A stretch of DNA of 64,000 nucleotides from Candidatus Heimdallarchaeota archaeon (GTDB taxonomy: Archaea > Asgardarchaeota > Heimdallarchaeia > Heimdallarchaeales > Heimdallarchaeaceae): assembly GCA_019057815.1 (NCBI GenBank), contig JAHLWR010000017.1:12019-76018 (forward strand). The letters run 5' to 3'. Below the pieces are notes generated by a model. The model was not told the origin of the DNA, did no database searches, and saw only the letters and a list, made by a program, of their open reading frames with translations. Position numbers and translations under genes: made by a program. Of the stretch, positions 3,208-62,993 are shown piece after piece. Each line of letters begins with the position of its first letter. Position 1 is the first letter of the stretch.

Positions 3208-4431
3208 TCAAGTACTATCCTTTACAATTATTTTGTAGGTTTTGATCAACTTTTTACCAACTACGCTATAATCGTAGTTTTTCAATGCATGTTTTTTAGT
3301 TTCAAAAGCAAACTGACGGCTTTCTTCTATATTTTTTAGTATTTTAACCACTATATCAACTAAAATGTCCTTTCTATTTAATGGAAAAAGCCAACCACTT
3401 CCTGGTGGTAACATTTCATTCATTGGCGGTGCATCTCCCGTTATAACTGGAATTCCACTTGCCATTGCCTCCACAATCGGTGTTCCAAAACTGCCTTCCT
3501 CAGCTGGATAGAGGAGCAGATCACTGATGTTATACGCAATTAGAAGTTCTTCATCATTAACATAACCTGTTATTACTGTGGACTCATCAATCTCATAGTC
3601 AACGATTTTTTCCTTAATTTTTGGTAAAAGTGGTCCATTTCCTATAATGAGAAACATGGTTTTAGGTTCTTCTGCGAGTATGTCAGGGAAGAAATCAACT
3701 ACATCTAATTGTAATTTTCTAGGGATAAAGGGACCAAGTATTAGAACAGTAGGATTTCCTTTCTTCAAATAATATTTATCTCGGAATCCTTCAATATCTT
3801 CAATTTTTGGAATTTGAGAATAAATTTTGCAATTTAAAGGAGCAGGTATGATATAAACTTTTGATTTCAGAGTATCAGTAATTTTTCCTGCTTTGTTTAA
3901 TAACGAAAAAGAAGATGTTATAATAGCATCACAGTACCCAATTGTTTTTCTCAACAATTTTCTGTATCTGCGACGAACAAATAATTTTGATTTTAGTGTT
4001 CCTGTAGTTACAGGGCCATGAGCTGACATTAGTAGAGGAATATTTAACCGATCTTTTTTCTTAGCTTGTGCAAAAGTAAAGACTGATAATTCAATGGAAT
4101 GAACAAGGTCGAAGGGATTTTCATGGTGGAGTTGTTCAAAAATTTTAAAAGCATCTTTTGAAAATTTTACATGATTTTTTGCAAACATATGTGTTTTAGT
4201 GCTATAAACACCTCTCGACGAAATCTTTGTAGGAACGTTGTAGAAATAAACATTCTCTTTCTCTAGAAGTTGATCATTTGATGGTAGTTTTGAGGTAGTT
4301 ACTACGTGGACTTCAATATTATAATTAGAAAGTGAATGTACAAGAGAATAAGCGTATCTTCTCAATCCCACCATTGGACCAGTGTAAGGAGGGCCTATTT
4401 CTAGTGTGGGAATGAACACAGAAAAGCTCAT
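3208..4431 (-). CDS. Glycosyltransferase family 4 (GT-B)
   Basis: EGSFGTPIVEAMASGIPVI motif, IIGNGP and FDLVHS in a 407-aa protein. Confidence 0.92.
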   Translation of the reverse strand: MSFSVFIPTLEIGPPYTGPMVGLRRYAYSLVHSLSNYNIEVHVVTTSKLPSNDQLLEKENVYFYNVPTKISSRGVYSTKTHMFAKNHVKFSKDAFKIFEQLHHENPFDLVHSIELSVFTFAQAKKKDRLNIPLLMSAHGPVTTGTLKSKLFVRRRYRKLLRKTIGYCDAIITSSFSLLNKAGKITDTLKSKVYIIPAPLNCKIYSQIPKIEDIEGFRDKYYLKKGNPTVLILGPFIPRKLQLDVVDFFPDILAEEPKTMFLIIGNGPLLPKIKEKIVDYEIDESTVITGYVNDEELLIAYNISDLLLYPAEEGSFGTPIVEAMASGIPVITGDAPPMNEMLPPGSGWLFPLNRKDILVDIVVKILKNIEESRQFAFETKKHALKNYDYSVVGKKLIKTYKIIVKDST

Positions 4432-41795: not shown

Positions 41796-41894
41796 AACAG
41801 AATCTTTTTAACATCCTATTCCTTGATTTTTCAGAGAAGAATCATTTTAAAATCACGAAATTAGGGCTTCTACAGTGAAATAGTGGTAATTGTA

Positions 41895-42548
41895 ATGAGA
41901 TTTGCAAAGGAATCAAAAGAAATAATTATGTTCTTTATTTCTATAATGTTATTAAGCTTAGTAGCTATTATAGCAATTTCTCAATTTTACAATTTGTGGT
42001 GGATATATGTTCTCTTAGCTATTCCTATATTCTGTTCTATTTTTGTTATTTGGACTTTTAGAGATCCACAAAGAATACCCAATTTATCACAAAATGGTAT
42101 TTTAGCTCCAGCTGACGGGATTGTTACTGAGATAGTTGAAAAAGAAAAAGGTTTTTACTGTGTTATTCGTATGTCACCTTTTGATGTTCATATGACTAGA
42201 AGCCCAATAAGTGGAACTGTTAGAAGTGTGAAACGTCAGAAAGGAAAACATTGGCCTGCTTATTTTTCAAATTATGTAAAAAGAAATCAAAGAAATACCA
42301 TCTTCATCGAAAATGTGGAAAAGAACATTTCAGCGGAAGTTATTCAGGTTTCAGGTATTTTTGCAAGAAGGACAATAGGATATATCAAAGAGGGAGATGA
42401 GATTACGCAAGGGGACGTAATTGGTATCATAAGATTTGGTTCTATTACATCAGTAGAAATAAAAGGAGAAAATAGTTATAAAATACTAATAAAGTCTAAA
42501 GAATCAGTTAGAGCTGGTTTATCAATAATAGCAATCAAAGATGGTTAG
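41895..42548 (+). CDS. psd: Archaetidylserine/phosphatidylserine decarboxylase proenzyme
   Basis: FRDP.R, APADG, MSPFDVH..RSP, ARR, IRFGS cleavage motif. Confidence 0.92.
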   Translation: MRFAKESKEIIMFFISIMLLSLVAIIAISQFYNLWWIYVLLAIPIFCSIFVIWTFRDPQRIPNLSQNGILAPADGIVTEIVEKEKGFYCVIRMSPFDVHMTRSPISGTVRSVKRQKGKHWPAYFSNYVKRNQRNTIFIENVEKNISAEVIQVSGIFARRTIGYIKEGDEITQGDVIGIIRFGSITSVEIKGENSYKILIKSKESVRAGLSIIAIKDG

Positions 42549-43335
42549 TGATTTCATGGAATGGAGTGAAATATCTTTTTTACAGAAACCTTGGATAAAG
42601 TATGGCGCTCTATTCTTAGCAAATCTAATGACACTTAGCAGTTTAGTTTTAGGAATTGTTGGTATTGTTTTGACTTTCAAATCTTATGAAAACTATTCAA
42701 TATATTTTGCTAAAATTCTAGCAGTCTGCTCGATTTTCGATTTTGCAGATGGAAAATTAGCTAGGATTGGTGGGAGCAAGAAAATAGCTGTCGACGTTGA
42801 TACAATAAGTGATTCAATAGTTTTTGGTATTTTACCTGCAATATATTTAGGTTATTGGGTTTCTGATTGGAGTATTGTAGCAGGTGTTTTTACAGGTTTG
42901 ATTTATGTTGGAGCAGTTTGGTTCAGGTTATACAGATTTAAAAAGAAAGATCCTATGTATGCTCCTTATTTTAGAGGATTACCCAGTCCTTTTGCTGCAA
43001 TGGTAATAGCTTGTCTTCTAATTTTTTCAGATACACCAGAATGGGGAGTATTAATAGCTACAATAATACTGGCTGGTTTTATGATTTCAACAATTCCTTT
43101 TGCATCATTTAAAGGTGTGCCTTCGAAATTTGATTGGTTTTGGATAGTAGTTACGACATTAGTTTTCATTCTCTTTGCAGTATTTCCTACAAGTTTGATG
43201 ATATTCCCTGCATACAGTTTAGCAACGTTAATGATAATATATTTAGTAGCTGGACCAATATATGCTGAAAAACTCGACAAAAAGTATCAACAAGATAAAA
43301 AAATTAAAGAGAAAAAGGCTGTTCCAGAAGCATAA
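42541..43335 (+). CDS. pssA: Archaetidylserine synthase (CDP-alcohol phosphatidyltransferase)
   Basis: DFADGKLAR...DTISD..FG..PA, RL.RF, F.GLPSP; overlaps psd. Confidence 0.9.
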   Translation: MVSDFMEWSEISFLQKPWIKYGALFLANLMTLSSLVLGIVGIVLTFKSYENYSIYFAKILAVCSIFDFADGKLARIGGSKKIAVDVDTISDSIVFGILPAIYLGYWVSDWSIVAGVFTGLIYVGAVWFRLYRFKKKDPMYAPYFRGLPSPFAAMVIACLLIFSDTPEWGVLIATIILAGFMISTIPFASFKGVPSKFDWFWIVVTTLVFILFAVFPTSLMIFPAYSLATLMIIYLVAGPIYAEKLDKKYQQDKKIKEKKAVPEA

Positions 43336-43370: not shown

Positions 43371-44438
43371 TCATTTCTTCTTTAATTTTGTATTAGCGAT
43401 CATTTCGAAGCCTAGAGCATTAGACATTACAGCGTTTTCAGGCACTAAAACTTCTTCAAATGATTTAACAATATTAGCGTCAAAGAATGCTTGTTTAAGA
43501 TATTTACCAAAGGTGTAAGATCCTCCACCACACACAATAACTTTCTCAATCCATGCATCTGGAGGAAGATTGTTTAGTAATCTATTACTTTCATCTACAA
43601 TAATATCTGCAATTGAAACTACAGCTTGATCTATCGCTGAACCAATGTCTAGAGCTTTTCCTCCGACAAGGACAGTTCTTTTCCCTTGTTCAATAGCTGT
43701 CATCAAATCAAATGGACGGATGATTTTACCAGCCTTTTCTTGAATTGCTCTTGAAAGAGCATTAGTTAGACTGTCTGTAGCTTCTTCAATAGAACCTGAA
43801 GCAGCTCTCATCATGCTACCTTTATACATACAAAGGATATCAGTTGTACCATGACCGATATCTACAATTATTGAATCGACAGCTGTTTTTACACCACTGC
43901 TTCGTAATGTATGCCAATATGTTCCATAGGGTTCAGGTGCTACTAAAACTTGTTCAACTAAAATTTTCATTTCTTTAACTTCACCTGTTGCATCATTTTT
44001 AACTTTGATATCATGTGTTCCTTTAAGACCTTTACTGAGTGTTTTACTCTCTTCCACACCTGTTGCTATTGGTACACCCGTAGCAACAACAAATTGCTCA
44101 TAATTGCTTTGCATTGTAAGACTTAGAATAGCTTTAAGTGCAAGCAAACTATTGTCGATAGACTTCATTTTGCCTTCAGAAGCCAGCGATTTTCTGATTT
44201 CACTTTGTAATCTCGCTAGTTCTCCAATATAGACATCTTGTCCTCTTGAGTCTTCAATAATCAAGTTATTGAGCAAACTCTTATCCTGAACTAAACCTGC
44301 CCATCCTGGATTGGGTGTTCCTATAACAGATGGAATTTTATACTGTTGATCTCCACATACAACTTTAATTGTGGAGGTACCTAAATCAACACCTACTGCT
44401 CTAGTAATTTCTGCAACTGGCATTTTAATTTCACTCAC
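43371..44438 (-). CDS. Actin-like ATPase, ParM/StbA-like
   Basis: Phosphate-1 VGVDLGTSTIK, IPSVIG, ATGVP, PEPYG, phosphate-2 IVDIGHGTTD, adenosine CGGGS, and C-terminal SNALGF. Confidence 0.88.
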   Translation of the reverse strand: MSEIKMPVAEITRAVGVDLGTSTIKVVCGDQQYKIPSVIGTPNPGWAGLVQDKSLLNNLIIEDSRGQDVYIGELARLQSEIRKSLASEGKMKSIDNSLLALKAILSLTMQSNYEQFVVATGVPIATGVEESKTLSKGLKGTHDIKVKNDATGEVKEMKILVEQVLVAPEPYGTYWHTLRSSGVKTAVDSIIVDIGHGTTDILCMYKGSMMRAASGSIEEATDSLTNALSRAIQEKAGKIIRPFDLMTAIEQGKRTVLVGGKALDIGSAIDQAVVSIADIIVDESNRLLNNLPPDAWIEKVIVCGGGSYTFGKYLKQAFFDANIVKSFEEVLVPENAVMSNALGFEMIANTKLKKK

Positions 44439-44492
44439 TTATGTTTTCAAGAAATTCTTATTTAAACTGTTTGTCCTCTTAGTTAGAAAAAT

Positions 44493-44664
44493 ATATACAC
44501 TTCTTTTATACTTACAAACCAGCTTCCGTTTAATATGTTCTTTTAACGTACTTGAATCTCTAAATTGGATAAGACTATGAAATAAATAGGTTTTTAGAGA
44601 TTAAATCTCTAATTATAAATGGAAAATACTCCGACAAAAAGCAGTAAAATATATAAGTGTATAT
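44493..44664. promoter_or_regulatory. Divergent promoter region with mirror-image AAGTGTATAT motifs and a central 19-bp palindrome
   Basis: ATATACACTT at 44493-44502; AAGTGTATAT at 44655-44664; TTAGAGATT-A-AATCTCTAA at 44594-44612; extra half-site at 44555-44563. Confidence 0.55.
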
Positions 44665-44721
44665 GATTTCTCTTTAAATGTATATGTGAAATAATTTAGT
44701 AAACTAATAGGTGAACTTAGT

Positions 44722-45285
44722 TTGGGAACTCGAATTTTCGACATGGACGAGTTAGAAGTAAGGGCTCAAATTGACAAAGTTATGAGAGCCACTGATAAGT
44801 TCTTTTTAATGGAAGATGGTAAGAGAGTTCGCCTAAATGAAGTTATAAGAGTTAAAGAGTTCACTGCTATGCTTGGTCTAATTATTGCTTATAGTGCTGG
44901 AAGTTTTATGACAATTGATCGTTTAGATCTTGAAGGAATGTACCCTGTAAGACAAAAAAGAATTATCAATAGGCTTGATTGTTACAGTGGTCAAGTGAGC
45001 AGCTCTTTAATGCTTGAATTACTTCAGCTGAGAGATAAAACGAAGCTTAGTAAGTATGATTTGATTTCACATATACAAAATAAGTATTTCAAAAACAAAC
45101 CTGTAGGTACCAGAGATATAACAGAATCTTTGAATCGTATGTTAAGAAAAACAATGAATGAATATTTCTTTTTTGAAAATAAGTATTTTAGAAGAGCACC
45201 ATTTGAACTTAGAATGATTGAAGTTCCCGCAAGAATACCTTATGAAGTGGTAAAAATAAGCGTTGATAACGTTATTCAAATATGA
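44722..45285 (+). CDS. Hypothetical protein divergent from the actin-like gene
   Basis: 187-aa ORF with a good SD (AGGTGA) before the TTG start. Confidence 0.75.
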   Translation: MGTRIFDMDELEVRAQIDKVMRATDKFFLMEDGKRVRLNEVIRVKEFTAMLGLIIAYSAGSFMTIDRLDLEGMYPVRQKRIINRLDCYSGQVSSSLMLELLQLRDKTKLSKYDLISHIQNKYFKNKPVGTRDITESLNRMLRKTMNEYFFFENKYFRRAPFELRMIEVPARIPYEVVKISVDNVIQI

Positions 45286-46693: not shown

Positions 46694-48027
46694 GTGAACT
46701 ACTCCTACCTTAAGGAAGGAGTTGCTTGATTCATAGAAAAGACTTGACCACTAACAATAGCAGAAGCGGTGATAGTGACCAGAGGTCTGTTCTCCACAAG
46801 TATAGAGGCACATCCCGTACCCCTCTTCAAAATATTTATCGAAGCGTTATAATCGCGGTCTAACTCTAAGTCACAATGAGGACAGAAGTGTATTCTGGTT
46901 AAAAGGTTTTTCTTAACTATTCGCCCACATCTAGAACATTCTTGGGTAGTACCTTTGGGATGGACTTTAACTACTTCTTTATCAGCATTGACAGCTTTAT
47001 AAGATAAATAGTTGAAGAACTGTCCCCACGAGGCGTCTAAAATGTGACGATGGAGAGTGCGCGACCGCTTGTTCTTTTTATTACCTTTCTGTGATAGTTC
47101 TTTAATATCCAAGTCTTCTACACAGATAAGGTCATAATTATCAACATAAAATCTGGAGACTTTATGCAAAAAATCTTTACGTTGATTAGTAATTTCCTCT
47201 AGAAGTTTAGCTAATTGTAACTTGGCTTTTAACCAGTTCTTTGAACCCTTCTTTTTACGAGAAAGGGTTCTATGAGTGACTTTGATTTTCTTTATTTGTT
47301 TGTCTATATTCTTAGGGTTCTCTACTCTTATCCCATCAGAGTCGACGATAAACGAAGAAATCCCTACATCTATTCCTACACTTTTATTGGTTTTAGGAAG
47401 AACTAGTGGAACGTTTTCTACTTGTATATTAGCAAACCATCTACCCGTTTGAGTGTGTTTGAGGATTATCCCTTTAATTTTGTTTTTCCTTACTCTATTA
47501 TTTAGCCCTCTACAATTGATAGTTCCTATTTTAGAGAAAGTTATCTTGTTTTTATATTCGTCTATCTTGAACCCGCTCTGGTTATAATTGATAGTTTTGT
47601 ACCATCCCTTTCCTTTGAACCTCAAGTGACCTATTTTACGTCCATTCTTTTTTAACTTTGATAGACTCTTGATATTTGTCCATAGAGTGTGGTTGACCAT
47701 CTGTAAAACTTTGGAATGTACTCCTTTCAATTCTGGCATAGAGTTGTTTTTTAACCCCACAATAAAAGATTGAGTTCTGTTTTGTGTGAGTTTTTCTCCC
47801 TTCTCTCGCGCTTTCTTACACTCTTCTAGTAGCTTATTATAGAGTTTTCTACAAATGTCCAACTGTTCAATGAGTGTTGCTTGTTGCTGTTTATTAGGGT
47901 ACAGTTGCACTTTGTATGTTAACATTAGTTCACCCTCTTAGTTCTTTTTTTAGTATAAAAAGCTGAGTCTATACTGAAGTAAACCATCTAGCATTCATCC
48001 CCTCCCTAAAGTAAGAGGACTTCCGCT
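46694..48027 (-). mobile_element. IS200/IS605-family tnpB-only (IS1341-like) element
   Basis: Right-end hairpin CTCCTTCC-TTAA-GGTAGGAG then TAGTTCAC (end 46694); left-end hairpin TCCTCTTAC-TTTA-GGGAGGGGA. Left boundary uncertain (48027-48035). Confidence 0.85.
46705..47925 (-). CDS. tnpB: RNA-guided endonuclease TnpB
   Basis: YKVQLYP; RuvC motifs GIDVG, VEDL and DRDYNA; Zn finger CSRC/CPHC. Confidence 0.95.
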   Translation of the reverse strand: MLTYKVQLYPNKQQQATLIEQLDICRKLYNKLLEECKKAREKGEKLTQNRTQSFIVGLKNNSMPELKGVHSKVLQMVNHTLWTNIKSLSKLKKNGRKIGHLRFKGKGWYKTINYNQSGFKIDEYKNKITFSKIGTINCRGLNNRVRKNKIKGIILKHTQTGRWFANIQVENVPLVLPKTNKSVGIDVGISSFIVDSDGIRVENPKNIDKQIKKIKVTHRTLSRKKKGSKNWLKAKLQLAKLLEEITNQRKDFLHKVSRFYVDNYDLICVEDLDIKELSQKGNKKNKRSRTLHRHILDASWGQFFNYLSYKAVNADKEVVKVHPKGTTQECSRCGRIVKKNLLTRIHFCPHCDLELDRDYNASINILKRGTGCASILVENRPLVTITASAIVSGQVFSMNQATPSLR

Positions 48028-48073: not shown

Positions 48074-50302
48074 CTATTTTTTGAGTTTTTGTCGGGTTAG
48101 TACAACTGATACTAATGCAATAATCGACAGGCTACCCAATAAATAATAACTAGAAACACGACTAGTCTCCGTAGTATAACCTTCTATAGTGAAATTGTCC
48201 GAATTAGGAGATCTAACTGTTCTTCCTGCATATTTGAAACTAATTGTTACATAATATTCACCAGTTAAGTAACCAGATAAATCAGTTGTATTACTTTCCC
48301 AGAGATCCTCTGAAGATTTGTAAAATATGTCAAAGGTACCTTCAACACTATCCGTCATGGCATTAAACAGTATAAGCATTACTTCTGCATTTTGAGTAAA
48401 CGTGTCCCAACCATAAAGTTGACTGTAGGTTGCTGATACTTTTACTTGAATACTGGAAACTGAAATCATTGTTACTATCGGCTTAAAGACTTCAAGAGTA
48501 TGTTGAATCGTTATAATACCTAGACTTTGAATCCCATACTGATAATCACCTGAAACAATTATTTTTACTATGAAATCTCCTTCAGGCAATTCTTGTAGGA
48601 CTAAAAATCCATACCAATGATCTATTGAAGAGTAGTTTAGTGCATATCGTATATACTCTTCTTCAGTATCTGAAACTATCAGTACAACATAAACGTCTAT
48701 ATCACTTAAATCCGAAATTTCCGTACCATTCTCGTCTACAATGTATATACTTCCACATGTATAGGACCAGTTGCTAGTGATGTAATTGGAATCGAAATCA
48801 AGAATAAATAGTGGATGTCCAATATCTACAGAATAATCTAAATCTTCGGTATAACCCACTCCCCATTGGTCATTAAAAGCGATGTTTGGTGTAGTTGTGC
48901 TTACAATGCTTGTTATTATATATGCTTCATCAATGGACGTTCCATTAACCATAATATCTATTATACCATCTTGAACTTCTTGTTTAACATGCCATCCATT
49001 AATGTCATGTACAGCTACAGAAATACCTATGGAGTGAATAATGGTTTCATTTAATTTAAACATAAGGTAGTTTGGAGGGGAATTGAGTTTTAAAATATGG
49101 AATCCATAGAATCTATGCATAACACCTGTTGAATCATATGGGTACAAGGATGTTTCATCAAAAACAGCTATAGAAATATCTAGATTGATAAAACCATACA
49201 AACCATCATTAAAAGAGGGATCATCTATTGTTAATGCTACAACCCAATTCAGATAAATAGTGTTAAAATCTACCAAATGACCTGCTTGTTCTAGAGCATC
49301 TTCAACACCTAGTGCACTATCATCTGCTTCATCTACTAAATAATTGATAGTTTCATAACCATATTTTTCTGCTATATAAAATATGAACAGGTAAGCAGCA
49401 CCGTAATCAATTCTAACATCTTTTCCACCATCACTTTCATAATTCCAATTTAAAAGGGCATTCTCTGGATTGTAAACAAAGTAATCTTCAACAAAATATG
49501 TTAAATTAGAAGCTGCTAAATGTCCTGTTATATAAGCTGCGAATTCTGCACAGCCTTCATCTATCCACCAATGCTCATCCTGATCGTGATTATAATGTAT
49601 TAGATGTTGGAATTCATGTGCTAGCACTCGCCAACCTTGTGTATATTCTACGTAAATCATCTCTCTTCTATTAGATTCTACTCCATTATGTTCATTAATC
49701 ACATCAAAATATCCTGCAACATATCCTCCTAAAGAAGTTAGAAAAATAGTGATATGAGGGTCACCATCAATGTCTCCCAAAGAACCATCAACATCACCGA
49801 AGAAGAGAACTTCATTAGGATAAATGTTAATTTCGAATTCATCTCTCCAATCTTCAGCAAGGTCTTCAGTGATAGCTAATCCCTTTTCAGCTATTTTTGC
49901 ATTAGAAACATAAACATATGAATTATTACCTATTGCTAAGAGTGTGGCTCTTACCTGAATTTTTTCATAAGGTAAAACAGTAAAGTCATCTATGATCCAG
50001 AAATCTACTTCTTCATATTTCTCAGAATCTAATTTTATTTCATCAATACTTAAATCAGAAATTGAAATTTCATCTTTTTGGTTCTCTTTTTGTTCATTGA
50101 ATTGAGATTTCAGAATTTGAGTTGGATTGGTAGGATCTAGTTCAAATAACTTCTCAGAAGATAAACTTGGAGGGTTAAATTTTTGAGCAGATTCACTCAT
50201 AGAGTTTATATCATCTGTGATTATGCTACCCCTTATTGCAAGGATTGGAATAAAACCAATTATCATTAGTGTGACTAATACTATTCGAGTTTGGTATTTC
50301 AT
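48074..50302 (-). CDS. Secreted, C-terminally anchored zinc metallopeptidase (M30-like)
   Basis: GYFD..NE, SN.REM.Y, AHEFQHLIHYN, W.DEG.AE, YGAAYLF; signal peptide and C-terminal TM. Confidence 0.85.
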   Translation of the reverse strand: MKYQTRIVLVTLMIIGFIPILAIRGSIITDDINSMSESAQKFNPPSLSSEKLFELDPTNPTQILKSQFNEQKENQKDEISISDLSIDEIKLDSEKYEEVDFWIIDDFTVLPYEKIQVRATLLAIGNNSYVYVSNAKIAEKGLAITEDLAEDWRDEFEINIYPNEVLFFGDVDGSLGDIDGDPHITIFLTSLGGYVAGYFDVINEHNGVESNRREMIYVEYTQGWRVLAHEFQHLIHYNHDQDEHWWIDEGCAEFAAYITGHLAASNLTYFVEDYFVYNPENALLNWNYESDGGKDVRIDYGAAYLFIFYIAEKYGYETINYLVDEADDSALGVEDALEQAGHLVDFNTIYLNWVVALTIDDPSFNDGLYGFINLDISIAVFDETSLYPYDSTGVMHRFYGFHILKLNSPPNYLMFKLNETIIHSIGISVAVHDINGWHVKQEVQDGIIDIMVNGTSIDEAYIITSIVSTTTPNIAFNDQWGVGYTEDLDYSVDIGHPLFILDFDSNYITSNWSYTCGSIYIVDENGTEISDLSDIDVYVVLIVSDTEEEYIRYALNYSSIDHWYGFLVLQELPEGDFIVKIIVSGDYQYGIQSLGIITIQHTLEVFKPIVTMISVSSIQVKVSATYSQLYGWDTFTQNAEVMLILFNAMTDSVEGTFDIFYKSSEDLWESNTTDLSGYLTGEYYVTISFKYAGRTVRSPNSDNFTIEGYTTETSRVSSYYLLGSLSIIALVSVVLTRQKLKK

Positions 50303-50360: not shown

Positions 50361-51626
50361 CTACCTAAAGGCGGTGGATTCTTGTTTCTTCGACGATTGC
50401 TTTCTTATAGAAAGTCTTACACCATCTCCACAAGCGTAACTTCCCGTCGTCCCAACGGTAGGGATGATAATGATATTATTAGTTTGAAGGATTTTGAGTC
50501 CTTCTTTTAGAAGGTTTTTTGAAGCATTAACATCTCTTTCATGAACTGTTGAGCATTTTGCACATATCCATTCGCGCTCTGATAGTTGGAGTTCTAAATT
50601 CTTCCAACCACAGTGAGAACATAATTTACTGGAAGGGAAAAACCGCTCCACTAATACAAGATGTCGCCCGTTTCGTTCTATTTTATGTCGCAAAGTTGAT
50701 ACGAATTGTGCCCAAGAAAAGTCTAAAGTAACGGATTTACTGATTCCTTTATTGAATTGTTGCATCCCTTTAATGTTTAAACGTTCTAAAATGATTGCAT
50801 CATATTCTTGAGCAAAACAAGTAGTTAATTTATGCAACCAATCATTTTTTCGGTTCGTGATTGTGTCATATTTTCGGGCTAATCGAAGTTGAGATTTCTT
50901 ACGATTCGATGAACCCTTCTTTTTTCGGGAAAGCCTGCGATGTAAGCGTTTAAGGCGGTTTTCTTCGTTTCGATAAAAACGGGGGTTGTTCAACTTTATT
51001 CTTTCGGAAATCAAAAAATGGGGTGCAGACATATCGAAAGCTTCAATTTTTGATAGTTTAATAACCTTTTTCTGAGAAATATTTATGTCACATTCTACAA
51101 GTAACGAGATAAAGTATTTACCGCTCTTGGTTTTCGAGACAGTGACTTGTTTGATAGGTTCGGTGAAGATTCGTTCATTTCGATACTTGATCCATGTGTT
51201 TATTTTAGGTAATTTTATCCGTTTTGTTTCAAAATCAATTTTGATGTTGTTATTGATGTTATATGTGGTATAACTCTGTTTATTTTTTTGGGATTTGAAA
51301 TTTGGGTATCCTATCTTTCGCGTGTTTTTCAACCCATCAAAGAATTTTTGAAAAGCGGTGTTCAGATTTCGAGTCACAGATTGAAGAGCTTTGCTATCTA
51401 CCTCTTTTAAGAAAGGAAACAACGCTTTGTATTCTTTTTCCGTTTTGTATTTGTGCGTGTATAGTTTTTCCTTATCGTGTTTGAGCTTTTGATACACTCC
51501 TTTTCGTTCATTAAGTATCTGATTCCATAGAAAACGACAGCAACCAAATGTTTTTGCTAATTGTGCTTGTTGTTCTTGGTTAGGATATATGCGGAACTTA
51601 TAAGCGTAATTAATCCTCACGTTCAA
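50361..51626 (-). CDS. tnpB: RNA-guided endonuclease TnpB
   Basis: YKFRIYPN..Q, FGCCRF.WN; RuvC motifs AFDMS, ILERL and ERDVNA; Zn finger CSHC/CAKC. Confidence 0.93.
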   Translation of the reverse strand: MNVRINYAYKFRIYPNQEQQAQLAKTFGCCRFLWNQILNERKGVYQKLKHDKEKLYTHKYKTEKEYKALFPFLKEVDSKALQSVTRNLNTAFQKFFDGLKNTRKIGYPNFKSQKNKQSYTTYNINNNIKIDFETKRIKLPKINTWIKYRNERIFTEPIKQVTVSKTKSGKYFISLLVECDINISQKKVIKLSKIEAFDMSAPHFLISERIKLNNPRFYRNEENRLKRLHRRLSRKKKGSSNRKKSQLRLARKYDTITNRKNDWLHKLTTCFAQEYDAIILERLNIKGMQQFNKGISKSVTLDFSWAQFVSTLRHKIERNGRHLVLVERFFPSSKLCSHCGWKNLELQLSEREWICAKCSTVHERDVNASKNLLKEGLKILQTNNIIIIPTVGTTGSYACGDGVRLSIRKQSSKKQESTAFR

Positions 51627-52032
51627 GTTTCCCCCGTTGAGTTTCTATATATTGATTAAGTCTATCAATAGAAACATTTCCCGTAGTAGCAATAAAATAG
51701 TTAGGACTCCAGAAATGGTCTCCCCATAATTTATTGCTCAAAAATTTCGCATACTTTTTCCTCAAAAACCGAGAGGTATGCCCTTTAATGGAATTAATAT
51801 ATTTTGGTATATCTAGATTTGGCTTAGCTGAGATTAATAAACGAGCATGTTCAATTCCACATTCAATTGCCAATACCTCAACATCAAAAGTTTGACTTAA
51901 TTCTTTCACTTTATCTTTGAAATCTCCAATAATTCCAATATCATCTAAGAAAACCTTTTGTCGATATTTTACAACGAATATCAAATGGTAGTTGAGCAAA
52001 TAGACACGATGGGCTTCTTTCCGATATTTCAT
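51610..52032 (-). CDS. tnpA: Y1 transposase TnpA with mutated HUH motif
   Basis: YHLIFVVKYR, KG.TSR, FWSP.YF..T.G and YIE.Q; the HUH motif reads HAR. Confidence 0.9.
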   Translation of the reverse strand: MKYRKEAHRVYLLNYHLIFVVKYRQKVFLDDIGIIGDFKDKVKELSQTFDVEVLAIECGIEHARLLISAKPNLDIPKYINSIKGHTSRFLRKKYAKFLSNKLWGDHFWSPNYFIATTGNVSIDRLNQYIETQRGKLERED

Positions 52033-52158: not shown

Positions 52159-52926
52159 TTACACTATCCAGCTTTTGATAATAGGATAAAGTAGTGACAC
52201 TAAGTAATTTAGTAGTAGTAACAGTGCAGATAGTATTATCAGTGAAAGAGCTGATAAGTTTCTTTTAGCATGACGATTTGCACTTCTTAGTTCTTTTCCC
52301 CAGTAAGTCTGATCTTCGCGTTTAAATTCCCAGTATTCCAGATAGTCCTCTTCATCCGCTTCTGGATCACAAATTATTCTTATTTTGTCTTTTATTTCTT
52401 TATCTGAATCCATTTTTCCAAAAACTTCAATCAGGATAGAAACAGCTTTCTTTGGTGGATTTTTAAAAATTTGTCTTACAATAACTACATTATTTTCGGT
52501 ATCTATTGTTGATGGCAATTTCTTATCGTTTATAAGAATAAAAATACTTTCTCCATTTACAGCGCTAGGTTCAAATTTAACTCTGATTTGAAAATCCGAT
52601 GGGGCAACTGATTGGTCATCTGGCTCGACAATTCTCATCTTTGGTGGAATGTGATACCTACTTAAACCTCCCATACATCCGCCAAAAATGAGAAAAATTC
52701 CTGGAATATAGAGTAATGATTTAGTGAAAAAATCAACTCCTGAATATTCACTAAAATCGAGTATTATCCAGATAATTATTTCCGTGACTAATATGATACC
52801 CCCCCATTTTAGTTGGAAGAATGCTATTCTTCTAGCTTTCTGCTTTAATGTCAAAGTTAAGAAATCAATTTCTTCTTTTTTCTCTTTTTCCCCTCTTTTA
52901 CGGAAACTAAATTTCATATCAATCAC
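52159..52926 (-). CDS. Hypothetical membrane protein
   Basis: Two N-terminal and one C-terminal TM segments flanking a beta-rich region. Confidence 0.7.
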   Translation of the reverse strand: MIDMKFSFRKRGEKEKKEEIDFLTLTLKQKARRIAFFQLKWGGIILVTEIIIWIILDFSEYSGVDFFTKSLLYIPGIFLIFGGCMGGLSRYHIPPKMRIVEPDDQSVAPSDFQIRVKFEPSAVNGESIFILINDKKLPSTIDTENNVVIVRQIFKNPPKKAVSILIEVFGKMDSDKEIKDKIRIICDPEADEEDYLEYWEFKREDQTYWGKELRSANRHAKRNLSALSLIILSALLLLLNYLVSLLYPIIKSWIV

Positions 52927-61870: not shown

Positions 61871-62641
61871 TTATTCTTTTTTGGCAACTTTGATTCTATG
61901 GATAATGATTTCACGAGTAAGTTGCTCAATAGGTTGAGAAACCTTAGCAACACTATTTGGACGAGAACTTCGTTTTAACCGACCATATTCATCAAGATGA
62001 CTCTTAATGTCAGGACTGCGAAGAAGTTTCATTAATTCATTGCGCGCTTGCAGGCAAGAAGTTTCAATAACGCGCATGTAAGCATCACCTTTGTTAATTG
62101 CAAGATTTTTATCGACTAGGAGATCTAAAAACTTGTCAGTGAGAATCCTTTCCTCTTTAGGGAGATCAATTTTGTTGAGAACGATCAAAAATGGTAAAGA
62201 TTTACCTAATAAATCTCCCTTAAGAGCGATGAGCTCCTCAAGACTTTCAACATTATCGTTCCACATACTTTTATGAGGGTCAAACATGAAAATAAGTCCA
62301 TCAGCACCTTCCAAAACAACTTTGCGTTGAATATAATGGCGTTTTTGGCCTGCTACAGTCCAGACTTGATAACGAAGCTTGGGAACGCTAACACCTTGAC
62401 CCTTAGGAAGTTCAAAGGTACTTTGATCGTAAAAAATAGTTCTGCCTGAGGGGTCATCTATCTTTTTCAATGACGAATAAATTGTTTCTGGGTCCTCAAC
62501 TTTCCTTAGGACATTGTAAACGGTCAGCATACTAGTTTTGCCAGATAGCGATGGCCCATATATTACAAGTTTTAAGTAAGGTACACCGCTTCCATCGGTC
62601 TTAAAAATGTCTCTTATTTTCATTTTTGTTGCTGTTCTCAT
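61871..62641 (-). CDS. MglA-like small GTPase, paralogue 2
   Basis: KLVIYGPSLSGKT, RTIFYD, WTVAGQ, R..VLEGADG..F, NKID, ETSC. Start uncertain (62656, 62641 or 62623). Confidence 0.87.
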   Translation of the reverse strand: MRTATKMKIRDIFKTDGSGVPYLKLVIYGPSLSGKTSMLTVYNVLRKVEDPETIYSSLKKIDDPSGRTIFYDQSTFELPKGQGVSVPKLRYQVWTVAGQKRHYIQRKVVLEGADGLIFMFDPHKSMWNDNVESLEELIALKGDLLGKSLPFLIVLNKIDLPKEERILTDKFLDLLVDKNLAINKGDAYMRVIETSCLQARNELMKLLRSPDIKSHLDEYGRLKRSSRPNSVAKVSQPIEQLTREIIIHRIKVAKKE

Positions 62642-62993
62642 CTTTACCGCCAACAATTCTTGTATGTATATATGTTTTATTCATCTTTTTTAAAACATTT
62701 TCATAAGTTAAGTATAAGTCTTTTATGAAATAAAAACCTATTAAAGATATCGATGATTGTAATTGAATGGTATAGGGTTTTTTCATGTAAAAATACAGGT
62801 AGATTCAACTACTGAGTGTTTTTCATATATCCATGAGTTAAATTTTACTTGTGGTGTAGAGATTATTGAAACACCTTCAATTAACAGTACTATTACACCT
62901 TAAAATTATGATAAAATTTTTCTTTCAAATATTACAGAAAAATTGGTTGCACAAAATATATATTAGATATAGAGATTCATTAAGTGTGGTTTG

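Follow-up and report, generated by a model that had tools for sequence, protein, structure and literature searches.

Here we describe a chromosomal gene for a ParM/StbA-type actin-like ATPase and the 187-amino-acid (aa) gene that lies head to head with it in a Candidatus Heimdallarchaeota archaeon of the family Heimdallarchaeaceae. Both were studied in a 64,000-nucleotide stretch of DNA (the window), which covers positions 12019-76018 of one contig of a 3.74-Mb genome (48 contigs, 33% GC). An initial annotation had taken the pair for a co-regulated cytoskeletal or segregation module of two genes joined by mirror-image promoters. We propose instead, at a probability of about 0.5, that these are two separate chromosomal genes, each with its own promoter, that share a 298-bp divergent spacer in one sub-clade of the family. 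Five genera of the Heimdallarchaeaceae (f1) were compared: the genus of the window (g1), Heimdallarchaeum (g2, two complete genomes), a large sister genus (g3, about 20 genomes), g4 and g5. The comparison extended to two sister families (f2 and f4), to another Heimdall family (f6) and to further Asgard lineages. Where a gene is reported below as absent, it was not detected in the sampled genomes, many of which are 80-90% complete.

The actin-like gene (P0002) occupies positions 43371..44423 of the minus strand and encodes 350 aa. The frame is open over 43371-44438 (355 codons). The start is nevertheless ATG 44423 and not GTG 44438; in an alignment of the spacers of 20 genomes this ATG is kept, with a GGTGA-type ribosome-binding site just upstream. 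That site (44431..44437, minus strand) reads GAGTGA here and GGTGA in the relatives, and a conserved block, TTTCACCAC, stands directly before the ATG in the 20 spacers. The product carries the motifs ATGVPIATG, APEPYG, DIGHGTTD and SNALGF. It scores above the Pfam cut-offs for ALP_N (PF17989; 62.1 bits against 26.3, residues 11-167) and MreB-like_C (62.3 bits against 27.8), which confirms the intact actin-fold ATPase with ParM/StbA-type motifs that had been annotated. The phosphate-1 (D13-L-G-T-S), phosphate-2 (D188-x-G-x-G-T194) and adenosine (G299-G-G301) motifs are invariant in 30 homologues. Because every nucleotide-binding motif is invariant, the protein most likely forms ATP-dependent filaments, and these would serve the cell and not a plasmid.

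The protein falls below the cut-offs of several related families. These are Pfam Actin (PF00022, 16.1 bits against 27), MreB_Mbl (PF06723, 22.3 bits against 27, a local match only) and FtsA, together with the NCBIfam equivalogs for ParM (PRK13917, 57.8 bits against 417), PRTRC_D (67.1 against 214.8) and MamK (44.8 against 400). The gene is present in single copy and is the sole ALP_N gene of the genome. Three eukaryote-type PF00022 actins are encoded on other contigs of the same genome and score 446, 257 and 194 bits. The profile scores support the classification of P0002 as a chromosomal ParM/StbA-type ATPase distinct from these three actins and, as had been claimed, from lokiactin.

Homologues of the actin-like protein with 41-56% identity were identified in Heimdall, Loki/Promethearchaeia, Hel, Njord and Sigyn genomes. 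The gene was found in 45 of the 251 Asgard genomes sampled, and its distribution is patchy and lineage-wise. It is present in 23/25 genomes of the Heimdallarchaeaceae, 5/5 of f6, 5/5 of family f20 and 6/7 of f23, and was found in 0/10 and 0/3 genomes of the sister families f2 and f4. All 80 loci collected are from Asgard archaea. Outside the Heimdallarchaeaceae the neighbours of the gene differ by Asgard lineage, each set being conserved within its lineage. Within the family the neighbourhood is conserved on chromosomes, including two complete ones of 3.1-3.3 Mb. The nearest non-Asgard relatives are the ParM/StbA proteins of bacterial plasmids (26% identity over 94% of the length to those of Vibrio plasmids), and the nearest solved structures by sequence are pCBH ParM and other ParMs (E 1e-5 to 1e-3). 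Viral contigs yielded no relatives. A tree of 83 sequences was rooted on a distant Loki/Hel paralogue, and one Heimdall family appears in it with three to four paralogues. This tree broadly follows Asgard taxonomy, which suggests vertical inheritance. P0002 thus belongs to an Asgard-only clade within the ParM/StbA actin-like proteins that was apparently inherited vertically. In the literature library searched, no paper on this clade or on Asgard proteins of the ParM type turned up, and in the actin phylogenies that were covered ParM served as a bacterial reference only.

The Loki/Hel loci (L111, 4840-8491; also L109, L110, L122, L124, L125, L127 and L130) mostly contain two divergent actin-like paralogues that are about 33% identical. 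The paralogue that matches the query is followed, in nearly all of these loci, by a gene for a 394-429-aa protein with hints of TPR.

The spacer between the divergent starts has a GC content of 24%. A TATA-like box, GTTTAAATAA, lies 35 nucleotides (nt) before the actin ATG (44458..44467, minus strand), and the block to which it belongs (TTATtTAAAc..TTTGt) is kept in 20/20 aligned spacers. We infer from this conservation that 44458-44467 is the actin promoter element and that the actin gene would be transcribed from it. The 187-aa gene (P0001, 44722..45285, plus strand) is preceded by the strongest conserved block of the spacer, a predicted core promoter with a B recognition element (BRE) and a TATA box, AGTAAAATATATAAGTGTATATG (44643..44666, plus strand). 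Its ribosome-binding site, GGTGA (44710..44714, plus strand), lies 8 nt upstream of the TTG start, and GGTG is kept 5-8 nt before the start in relatives. The same codon is ATG, GTG or TTG in the relatives, which further supports this start. Genomes across the order retain the promoter motif TTTATAAGTG(C/T) ahead of the 187-aa gene, including those where the actin gene is far away or was not found, and the motif is rare genome-wide (14-15 copies). The motif therefore belongs to the 187-aa gene alone. The 187-aa gene would be driven by this conserved BRE/TATA promoter, which moves with it wherever it is placed.

The two Heimdallarchaeum genomes (L032, about 3380-3460; L033, about 3276-3356) carry, upstream of the 187-aa gene, two copies of a promoter-like motif, AAAATTTATAAGTG, at a distance of 47 nt. 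The window contains a weaker echo of this doubling, with TAAGTGTATATG at 44654-44665 and TAAATGTATATG at 44675-44686.

The repeated elements from which a joint promoter region had been deduced are all present. The 10-mer AAGTGTATAT occurs on the minus strand at 44493..44502 (the actin side) and on the plus strand at 44655-44664 (the 187-aa side). Between the two copies lie a 19-bp perfect palindrome, TTAGAGATTAAATCTCTAA (44594..44612), and an extra half-site, AATCTCTAA (44555..44563, plus strand). The 10-mer was described as lying 55-58 nt before both start codons, each time beside a TATA-like box. On the 187-aa side the copy is inside the BRE/TATA block. The actin-side copy lies outside the conserved actin promoter. 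It is 70 nt from the actin start and not 55 nt, because translation starts at ATG 44423, and the conserved TATA box is not beside it.

A genome-wide scan found 17 copies of the 10-mer against about 33 expected from composition, fewer than chance, and 22% of shuffled spacers yield an inverted pair of 10-mers. The pair is thus not significant alone. A same-genus relative, G157, has proteins 94% and 99% identical to those of the window and a spacer that is 88% identical. Its spacer differs from that of the window in both 10-mers, in the half-site (changed to AATCTTAAA) and in the palindrome. When each of the 18 g3 spacers was scored for inverted copies of its own promoter motif, no copy was better than chance, and none of these spacers has an equivalent of the actin-side 10-mer. 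On this comparison of spacers, the actin-side 10-mer is a lineage-specific coincidence and the plus-strand copy is part of the predicted 187-aa promoter. The proposal of mirror-image promoters is not supported by these results.

The arrangement of the two genes is also variable. In g1 the order (strands as signs) is actin-, 187+, 163+ and GTPase-, where 163 denotes a 163-aa gene and GTPase an MglA-like small GTPase gene; the actin and 187-aa genes are head to head. The same junction is found in g3, which has actin-, 187+ and GTPase-, and in which the 163-aa gene was not found (0/20). In Heimdallarchaeum 187+ and 163- are separated by 8 kb from GTPase+ and actin+, with the GTPase gene 114-118 nt before the actin gene. 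The g4 order is 187+, 163+ and GTPase-, then 8 kb, then actin+. In g5 it is GTPase+, 163- and actin+, the last two head to head, so that the divergent neighbour of the actin gene is another gene; the 187-aa gene was not found in this genome, which is 91% complete. The head-to-head pair is thus kept in about 22 relatives, with spacers of 270-340 bp, all of them in 2/5 genera of the family. The two genes are 8-9 kb apart in two other genera.

Each gene also occurs without the other. The 187-aa family is present in 22/25 genomes of the Heimdallarchaeaceae, 8/10 of f2, 2/3 of f4 and 1/1 of family f3, and the actin gene was found in no f2 or f4 genome. Conversely, Loki/Hel, Njord and other Heimdall lineages have the actin without the 187-aa family. 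The synteny that a conserved two-gene module would predict is therefore confined to two genera, and the claim of such a module is not sustained. The adjacency is better described as local gene-order shuffling in a small neighbourhood that would comprise the actin gene, the 187-aa gene, the 163-aa gene and the MglA-like GTPase gene. On the other side of the actin gene, PSS-PSD-subtilase genes are present in every family locus that reaches that far.

The 187-aa protein has no match in Pfam or NCBIfam and belongs to an order-restricted orphan family. A profile of 17 members found only 14 matches among 1.84 billion representative proteins. Genome scans gave no credible family match outside the order, with two weak ones at E about 0.005, and a sequence search of the PDB and an Atlas feature search gave no match and no usable match, respectively. 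The AlphaFold model has a predicted local distance difference test score (pLDDT) of 76.5 overall and above 83 from residue 50. In a structural scan with this model, the best and most numerous matches are OmpR/PhoB-type winged-helix DNA-binding domains, which align with residues 51-165. At least 15 such domains match with Z 5-6.4 (best 5.7-6.4), root-mean-square deviation (rmsd) 3.0-3.6 A over 85-98 residues and near-complete target coverage, all Z-scores being below the level where a match clearly exceeds a common arrangement. Even with the E limit set at 10, Pfam gave no Trans_reg_C match for any of the 17 family members. Members of the family hardly differ in the predicted recognition helix. 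With moderate support from the model, an OmpR/PhoB-like winged helix (residues about 50-165) is plausible. DNA binding by the protein is therefore likely, and it would most likely act as a regulator. The initial annotation had offered adaptor or regulator as its role; the regulator is plausible on the winged-helix model, and a ParR-like adaptor is unlikely given the uncoupled phyletic patterns of the two genes. A complex prediction for the actin-like and 187-aa proteins scored 0.00 in both runs, a value that counts neither for nor against binding.

Two other assignments of the 187-aa family were rejected. A toxofilin-like domain was indicated over 34 residues in 9/17 members, at 12-15 bits where the cut-off is 27, and was taken as a chance amphipathic-helix match. 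An actin half-domain was indicated by Foldseek rows for ParM, Hsp70 and Ppx (E about 0.01-0.06), but these had a template-modelling score (TM) of less than 0.25 and an rmsd of more than 10 A. The shape rows of the ESM Atlas (TM 0.32-0.41) were also too weak for such a claim.

The palindrome (TTAGAGATT-A-AATCTCTAA) lies 35 nt upstream of the BRE/TATA block of the 187-aa gene and has no second copy in the 3.74-Mb genome. Among random 100-nt stretches of the same composition, about 1% contain a 9+9 dyad. A conserved short block of the 20-spacer alignment, ATTTAWAGG, overlaps the left arm. In G157 the palindrome has three uncompensated changes, which reduce the arms to 6+6. Only this one palindrome and one half-site are present, with no iterated, centromere-like repeat array, and an Rfam scan of the spacer returned a sub-threshold row only. 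The palindrome is upstream of the promoter of the 187-aa gene and not that of the actin gene, and is at most a putative, poorly conserved local operator for the 187-aa gene. A centromere-like role, which had also been proposed for it, finds no support in the single site or in its loss of symmetry in a sister species.

This bears on the model of the initial annotation, a ParMRC-like segregation module with the 187-aa protein in place of ParR as DNA-binding adaptor and with the palindrome and half-site as a centromere-like site moved by the filaments. The actin-like protein is indeed related to ParM, and its clade includes a candidate for such a system. In f6 the genes for actin, k13 (195-243 aa), k14 (372 aa), an MglA-like GTPase and k15 (about 1060 aa) form an operon in 11/11 loci (L113, 6001-8883; L112, L114-L116, L118-L121, L123 and L149). 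The k13 protein combines a basic tail with a core whose sequence pattern is ribbon-helix-helix-like, and its C-terminal peptide, PDRPSLDDAIGAIVIVE, is invariant. Its layout is ParR-like, and from the sequences the operon looks like a chromosomal ParMR-type cassette. Because the putatively ParR-like k13 follows an actin paralogue, adaptor-type partners would exist in the actin clade, and winged-helix adaptors are known for other segregation filaments, TubR being an example. At the locus of the window, however, the 187-aa gene is not in an operon with the actin gene, there is no repeat array, the palindrome is not conserved and would be a single site in a 3.7-Mb chromosome, and the two genes do not track each other across lineages. 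Profile comparison found no relation between the 187-aa and k13 families, and no k13 homologue was found in the genome of the window. We therefore regard a ParMRC-like module as very improbable here.

No PDB or Pfam sequence match was found for k13, and the Atlas gave only sub-threshold leads to ribbon-helix-helix families. A small gene of 93-115 aa lies divergently upstream of the f6 operon.

The more persistent genomic associate of the actin gene is, by gene order, the MglA-like GTPase gene. The GTPase gene of the window (P0006, 45895..46653, minus strand; Pfam Ras/Roc) has a counterpart 0.1-10 kb from the actin gene in each of the five genera. A second MglA-like GTPase, 43% identical to P0006, is encoded at 61871-62656 (minus strand), and both are within 18 kb of the actin-like gene. 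A second lineage with the linkage is f6, by way of its actin operon; the linkage was not seen in the Loki/Hel and Njord groups or for two other f6 actin paralogues. The gene neighbourhood suggests a possible GTPase-regulated filament system.

Between the 187-aa and GTPase genes lies the 163-aa gene (P0003, 45382..45873, plus strand), which in four genera usually lies next to the 187-aa gene. Its family (about 150 aa) is Asgard-wide, being found in 89/251 genomes, often in several copies; a word-based homologue search returned near-identical sequences only. The AlphaFold model is confident (pLDDT 88.4, predicted TM 0.84), yet the best of 48,161 solved chains reaches Z 3.0, Foldseek returned nothing, and there is no Pfam match. 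A roadblock- or profilin-like partner was considered for this gene and rejected, as neither a Pfam match nor a structural match above Z 3 was found. In f2 (L048, 5922-7476; L049, L051, L027 and L030) the 187-aa homologue is followed by a tandem gene for a Ras-family GTPase of 275-310 aa in 5/5 genomes. A Ras-family GTPase gene of the same cluster is also found three genes upstream of the f6 actin operon.

It could be argued that the four neighbours (actin, MglA-like GTPase, 163-aa and 187-aa genes) make up one GTPase-switched filament system, in which the winged-helix protein is a partner of the GTPase and not a transcription factor. All four lie within about 10 kb in the family despite shuffled order and orientation. 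The tandem arrangement in f2 and the f6 operon, with its MglA-like GTPase and the f2-type GTPase upstream, point the same way. However, close relatives retain ancestral neighbourhoods without any functional link, and the set is incomplete in g3, which lacks a detected 163-aa gene, and in g5, where no 187-aa gene was found. Some actin-GTPase adjacency is moreover expected by chance because Asgard genomes carry many small GTPases. These points make a four-gene system quite unlikely.

Several observations count against our reading of two separate genes and its corollaries. Both genes are within 10 kb of each other in 4/4 genera that hold both, despite rearrangements, and this, together with the head-to-head arrangement in about 22 genomes, is compatible with a functional link. 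The winged-helix assignment, from which a separate regulator was deduced, has middling Z-scores behind it, and sequence searches detected no family. For the f6 operon GTPase the best match in the genome of the window is the other paralogue (about 61898-62578), with P0006 second, so that the link between GTPase and actin holds at the level of the subfamily only. Finally, dyads with other arms recur about 31-35 nt upstream of the 187-aa promoter in several lineages (g1 and parts of g3), and this recurring dyad could be a real operator common to both genes.

The last point would make the 187-aa winged-helix protein a local transcription factor that binds the spacer dyad and controls its own gene and, where the two are head to head, the actin gene. 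The pair would then be co-regulated without being an adaptor system. Such control would fit the divergent layout with its 270-340-bp spacer, the predicted fold of the protein, the genome-unique palindrome and the equal distance of the dyads from the promoter. Yet the arms of the dyad vary (TTAGAG, TTTAAAG, TATAGG, ATTATTT), in contrast to a predicted recognition helix that scarcely varies, and the three changes in the palindrome within the genus are uncompensated. Dyads of 6+6 are found in 37% of random 100-nt AT-rich stretches. The dyad is also about 130 nt from the actin TATA box, and families in which no actin was found still have the 187-aa protein. We consider joint control of this kind unlikely and retain the reading of two genes with a promoter each.

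A broader scenario can be built from the same elements. In addition to their eukaryote-like actins, several Asgard lineages would keep a second, prokaryotic-type actin system, a ParM-like filament switched by MglA-like GTPases. In the Heimdallarchaeaceae an ancestral ParR-type adaptor, which would persist next to a paralogue in a sister family, would have been replaced by the order-specific winged-helix protein at the spacer dyad. This is speculative, and we hold it to be decidedly improbable.

The flanks of the pair agree in part with what had been annotated. The actin gene does lie among core lipid genes, since phosphatidylserine decarboxylase and CDP-alcohol phosphatidyltransferase genes (41883..43335, plus strand; Pfam) converge on it. 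The locus is chromosomal, no integrase was found at it, and its base composition is uniform and equal to that of the genome. The initial annotation had also noted no plasmid or integrase context, but mobile DNA is not wholly absent because three IS200/IS605 genes lie 1.4-7 kb from the pair. These are two TnpB (IS605 OrfB) genes (46705-47925 and 50361-51626) and an IS200-type Y1 transposase gene (51610-52032), all on the minus strand. They split a run of the GTPase gene, a 742-aa gene (48074-50302, minus strand) and a 255-aa gene (52159-52926, minus strand). The TnpB and Y1 genes are thus recent insertions specific to the host genome, because the interrupted run is contiguous in related genomes. 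Neither the 742-aa nor the 255-aa gene has a Pfam match; both accompany the GTPase gene, along with an ABC/FtsX pair of transporter genes, in every genus of the family that was examined.

The origin of the eukaryotic cytoskeleton is being studied in Asgard archaea, with a focus so far on lokiactin, actin-related proteins (ARPs) and their regulators. A conserved chromosomal clade of ParM-like actins in several Asgard groups, with three to four paralogues and a putative ParR-like partner in one family, raises the question of what role a bacterial-type actin filament would have in cells that already hold eukaryote-like actin. The promoter symmetry and the palindrome should not be taken as evidence for a module. 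Better leads are the linkage to MglA-like GTPases, the ParR-like operon of f6 and the DNA-binding capacity predicted for the 187-aa protein.

The resemblances to known systems differ from gene to gene. The fold nearest to the 187-aa model is that of OmpR/PhoB domains (CssR 7cx5, CadC 5ju7, ToxR 8b4b, PhoP 2pmu), on whose layout (a sheet of four strands, three helices and a wing formed by a hairpin) the model superposes at Z-scores where the likeness may be no more than a common arrangement. Unlike the OmpR/PhoB proteins, the 187-aa protein has no sequence match and no receiver or membrane domain, and it adds a poorly modelled N-terminus of 48 residues and a C-terminal helix.

The actin-like protein belongs to the same fold family as the plasmid ParM/StbA proteins (R1 ParM; pCBH ParM of Clostridium botulinum, PDB 6ixw/6izr), with the ATP-binding motifs intact, and pCBH ParM is its best solved relative by sequence (E 1.3e-5). 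Unlike the plasmid proteins, it is chromosomal, archaeal and apparently vertically inherited, and it is unusually conserved, at about 50% identity across Asgard classes. No downstream parR, parC repeats or plasmid genes are present. The adaptor of ParMRC systems is encoded in the operon, whereas the gene downstream of the actin gene is the convergent CDP-alcohol phosphatidyltransferase gene and the 187-aa gene is divergent. A centromere of iterated repeats was not found at the locus, and a conserved chromosomal neighbourhood takes the place of a plasmid or mobile location.

ParM proteins are also known from bacterial chromosomes. These proteins (Dh-cParM1, Cb-cParM) are chromosome-fixed and genus-conserved, can polymerise and may act beyond plasmid segregation (PMC12270681). 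They mostly keep an adjacent ParR-like ribbon-helix-helix gene (PMC12270681). Dh-cParM1 (8x1i) is a weak sequence match to the actin-like protein described here, and the locus of the window differs from the bacterial ones in having no ParR-like ribbon-helix-helix gene. Myxococcus xanthus possesses an MglA-MreB polarity module. In the archaeon the actin is ParM-like and not MreB, no MglB/roadblock partner was recognised, and the link is by gene neighbourhood alone. What the two cases would have in common is the association of an actin homologue of prokaryotic kind with a small GTPase of the MglA type.

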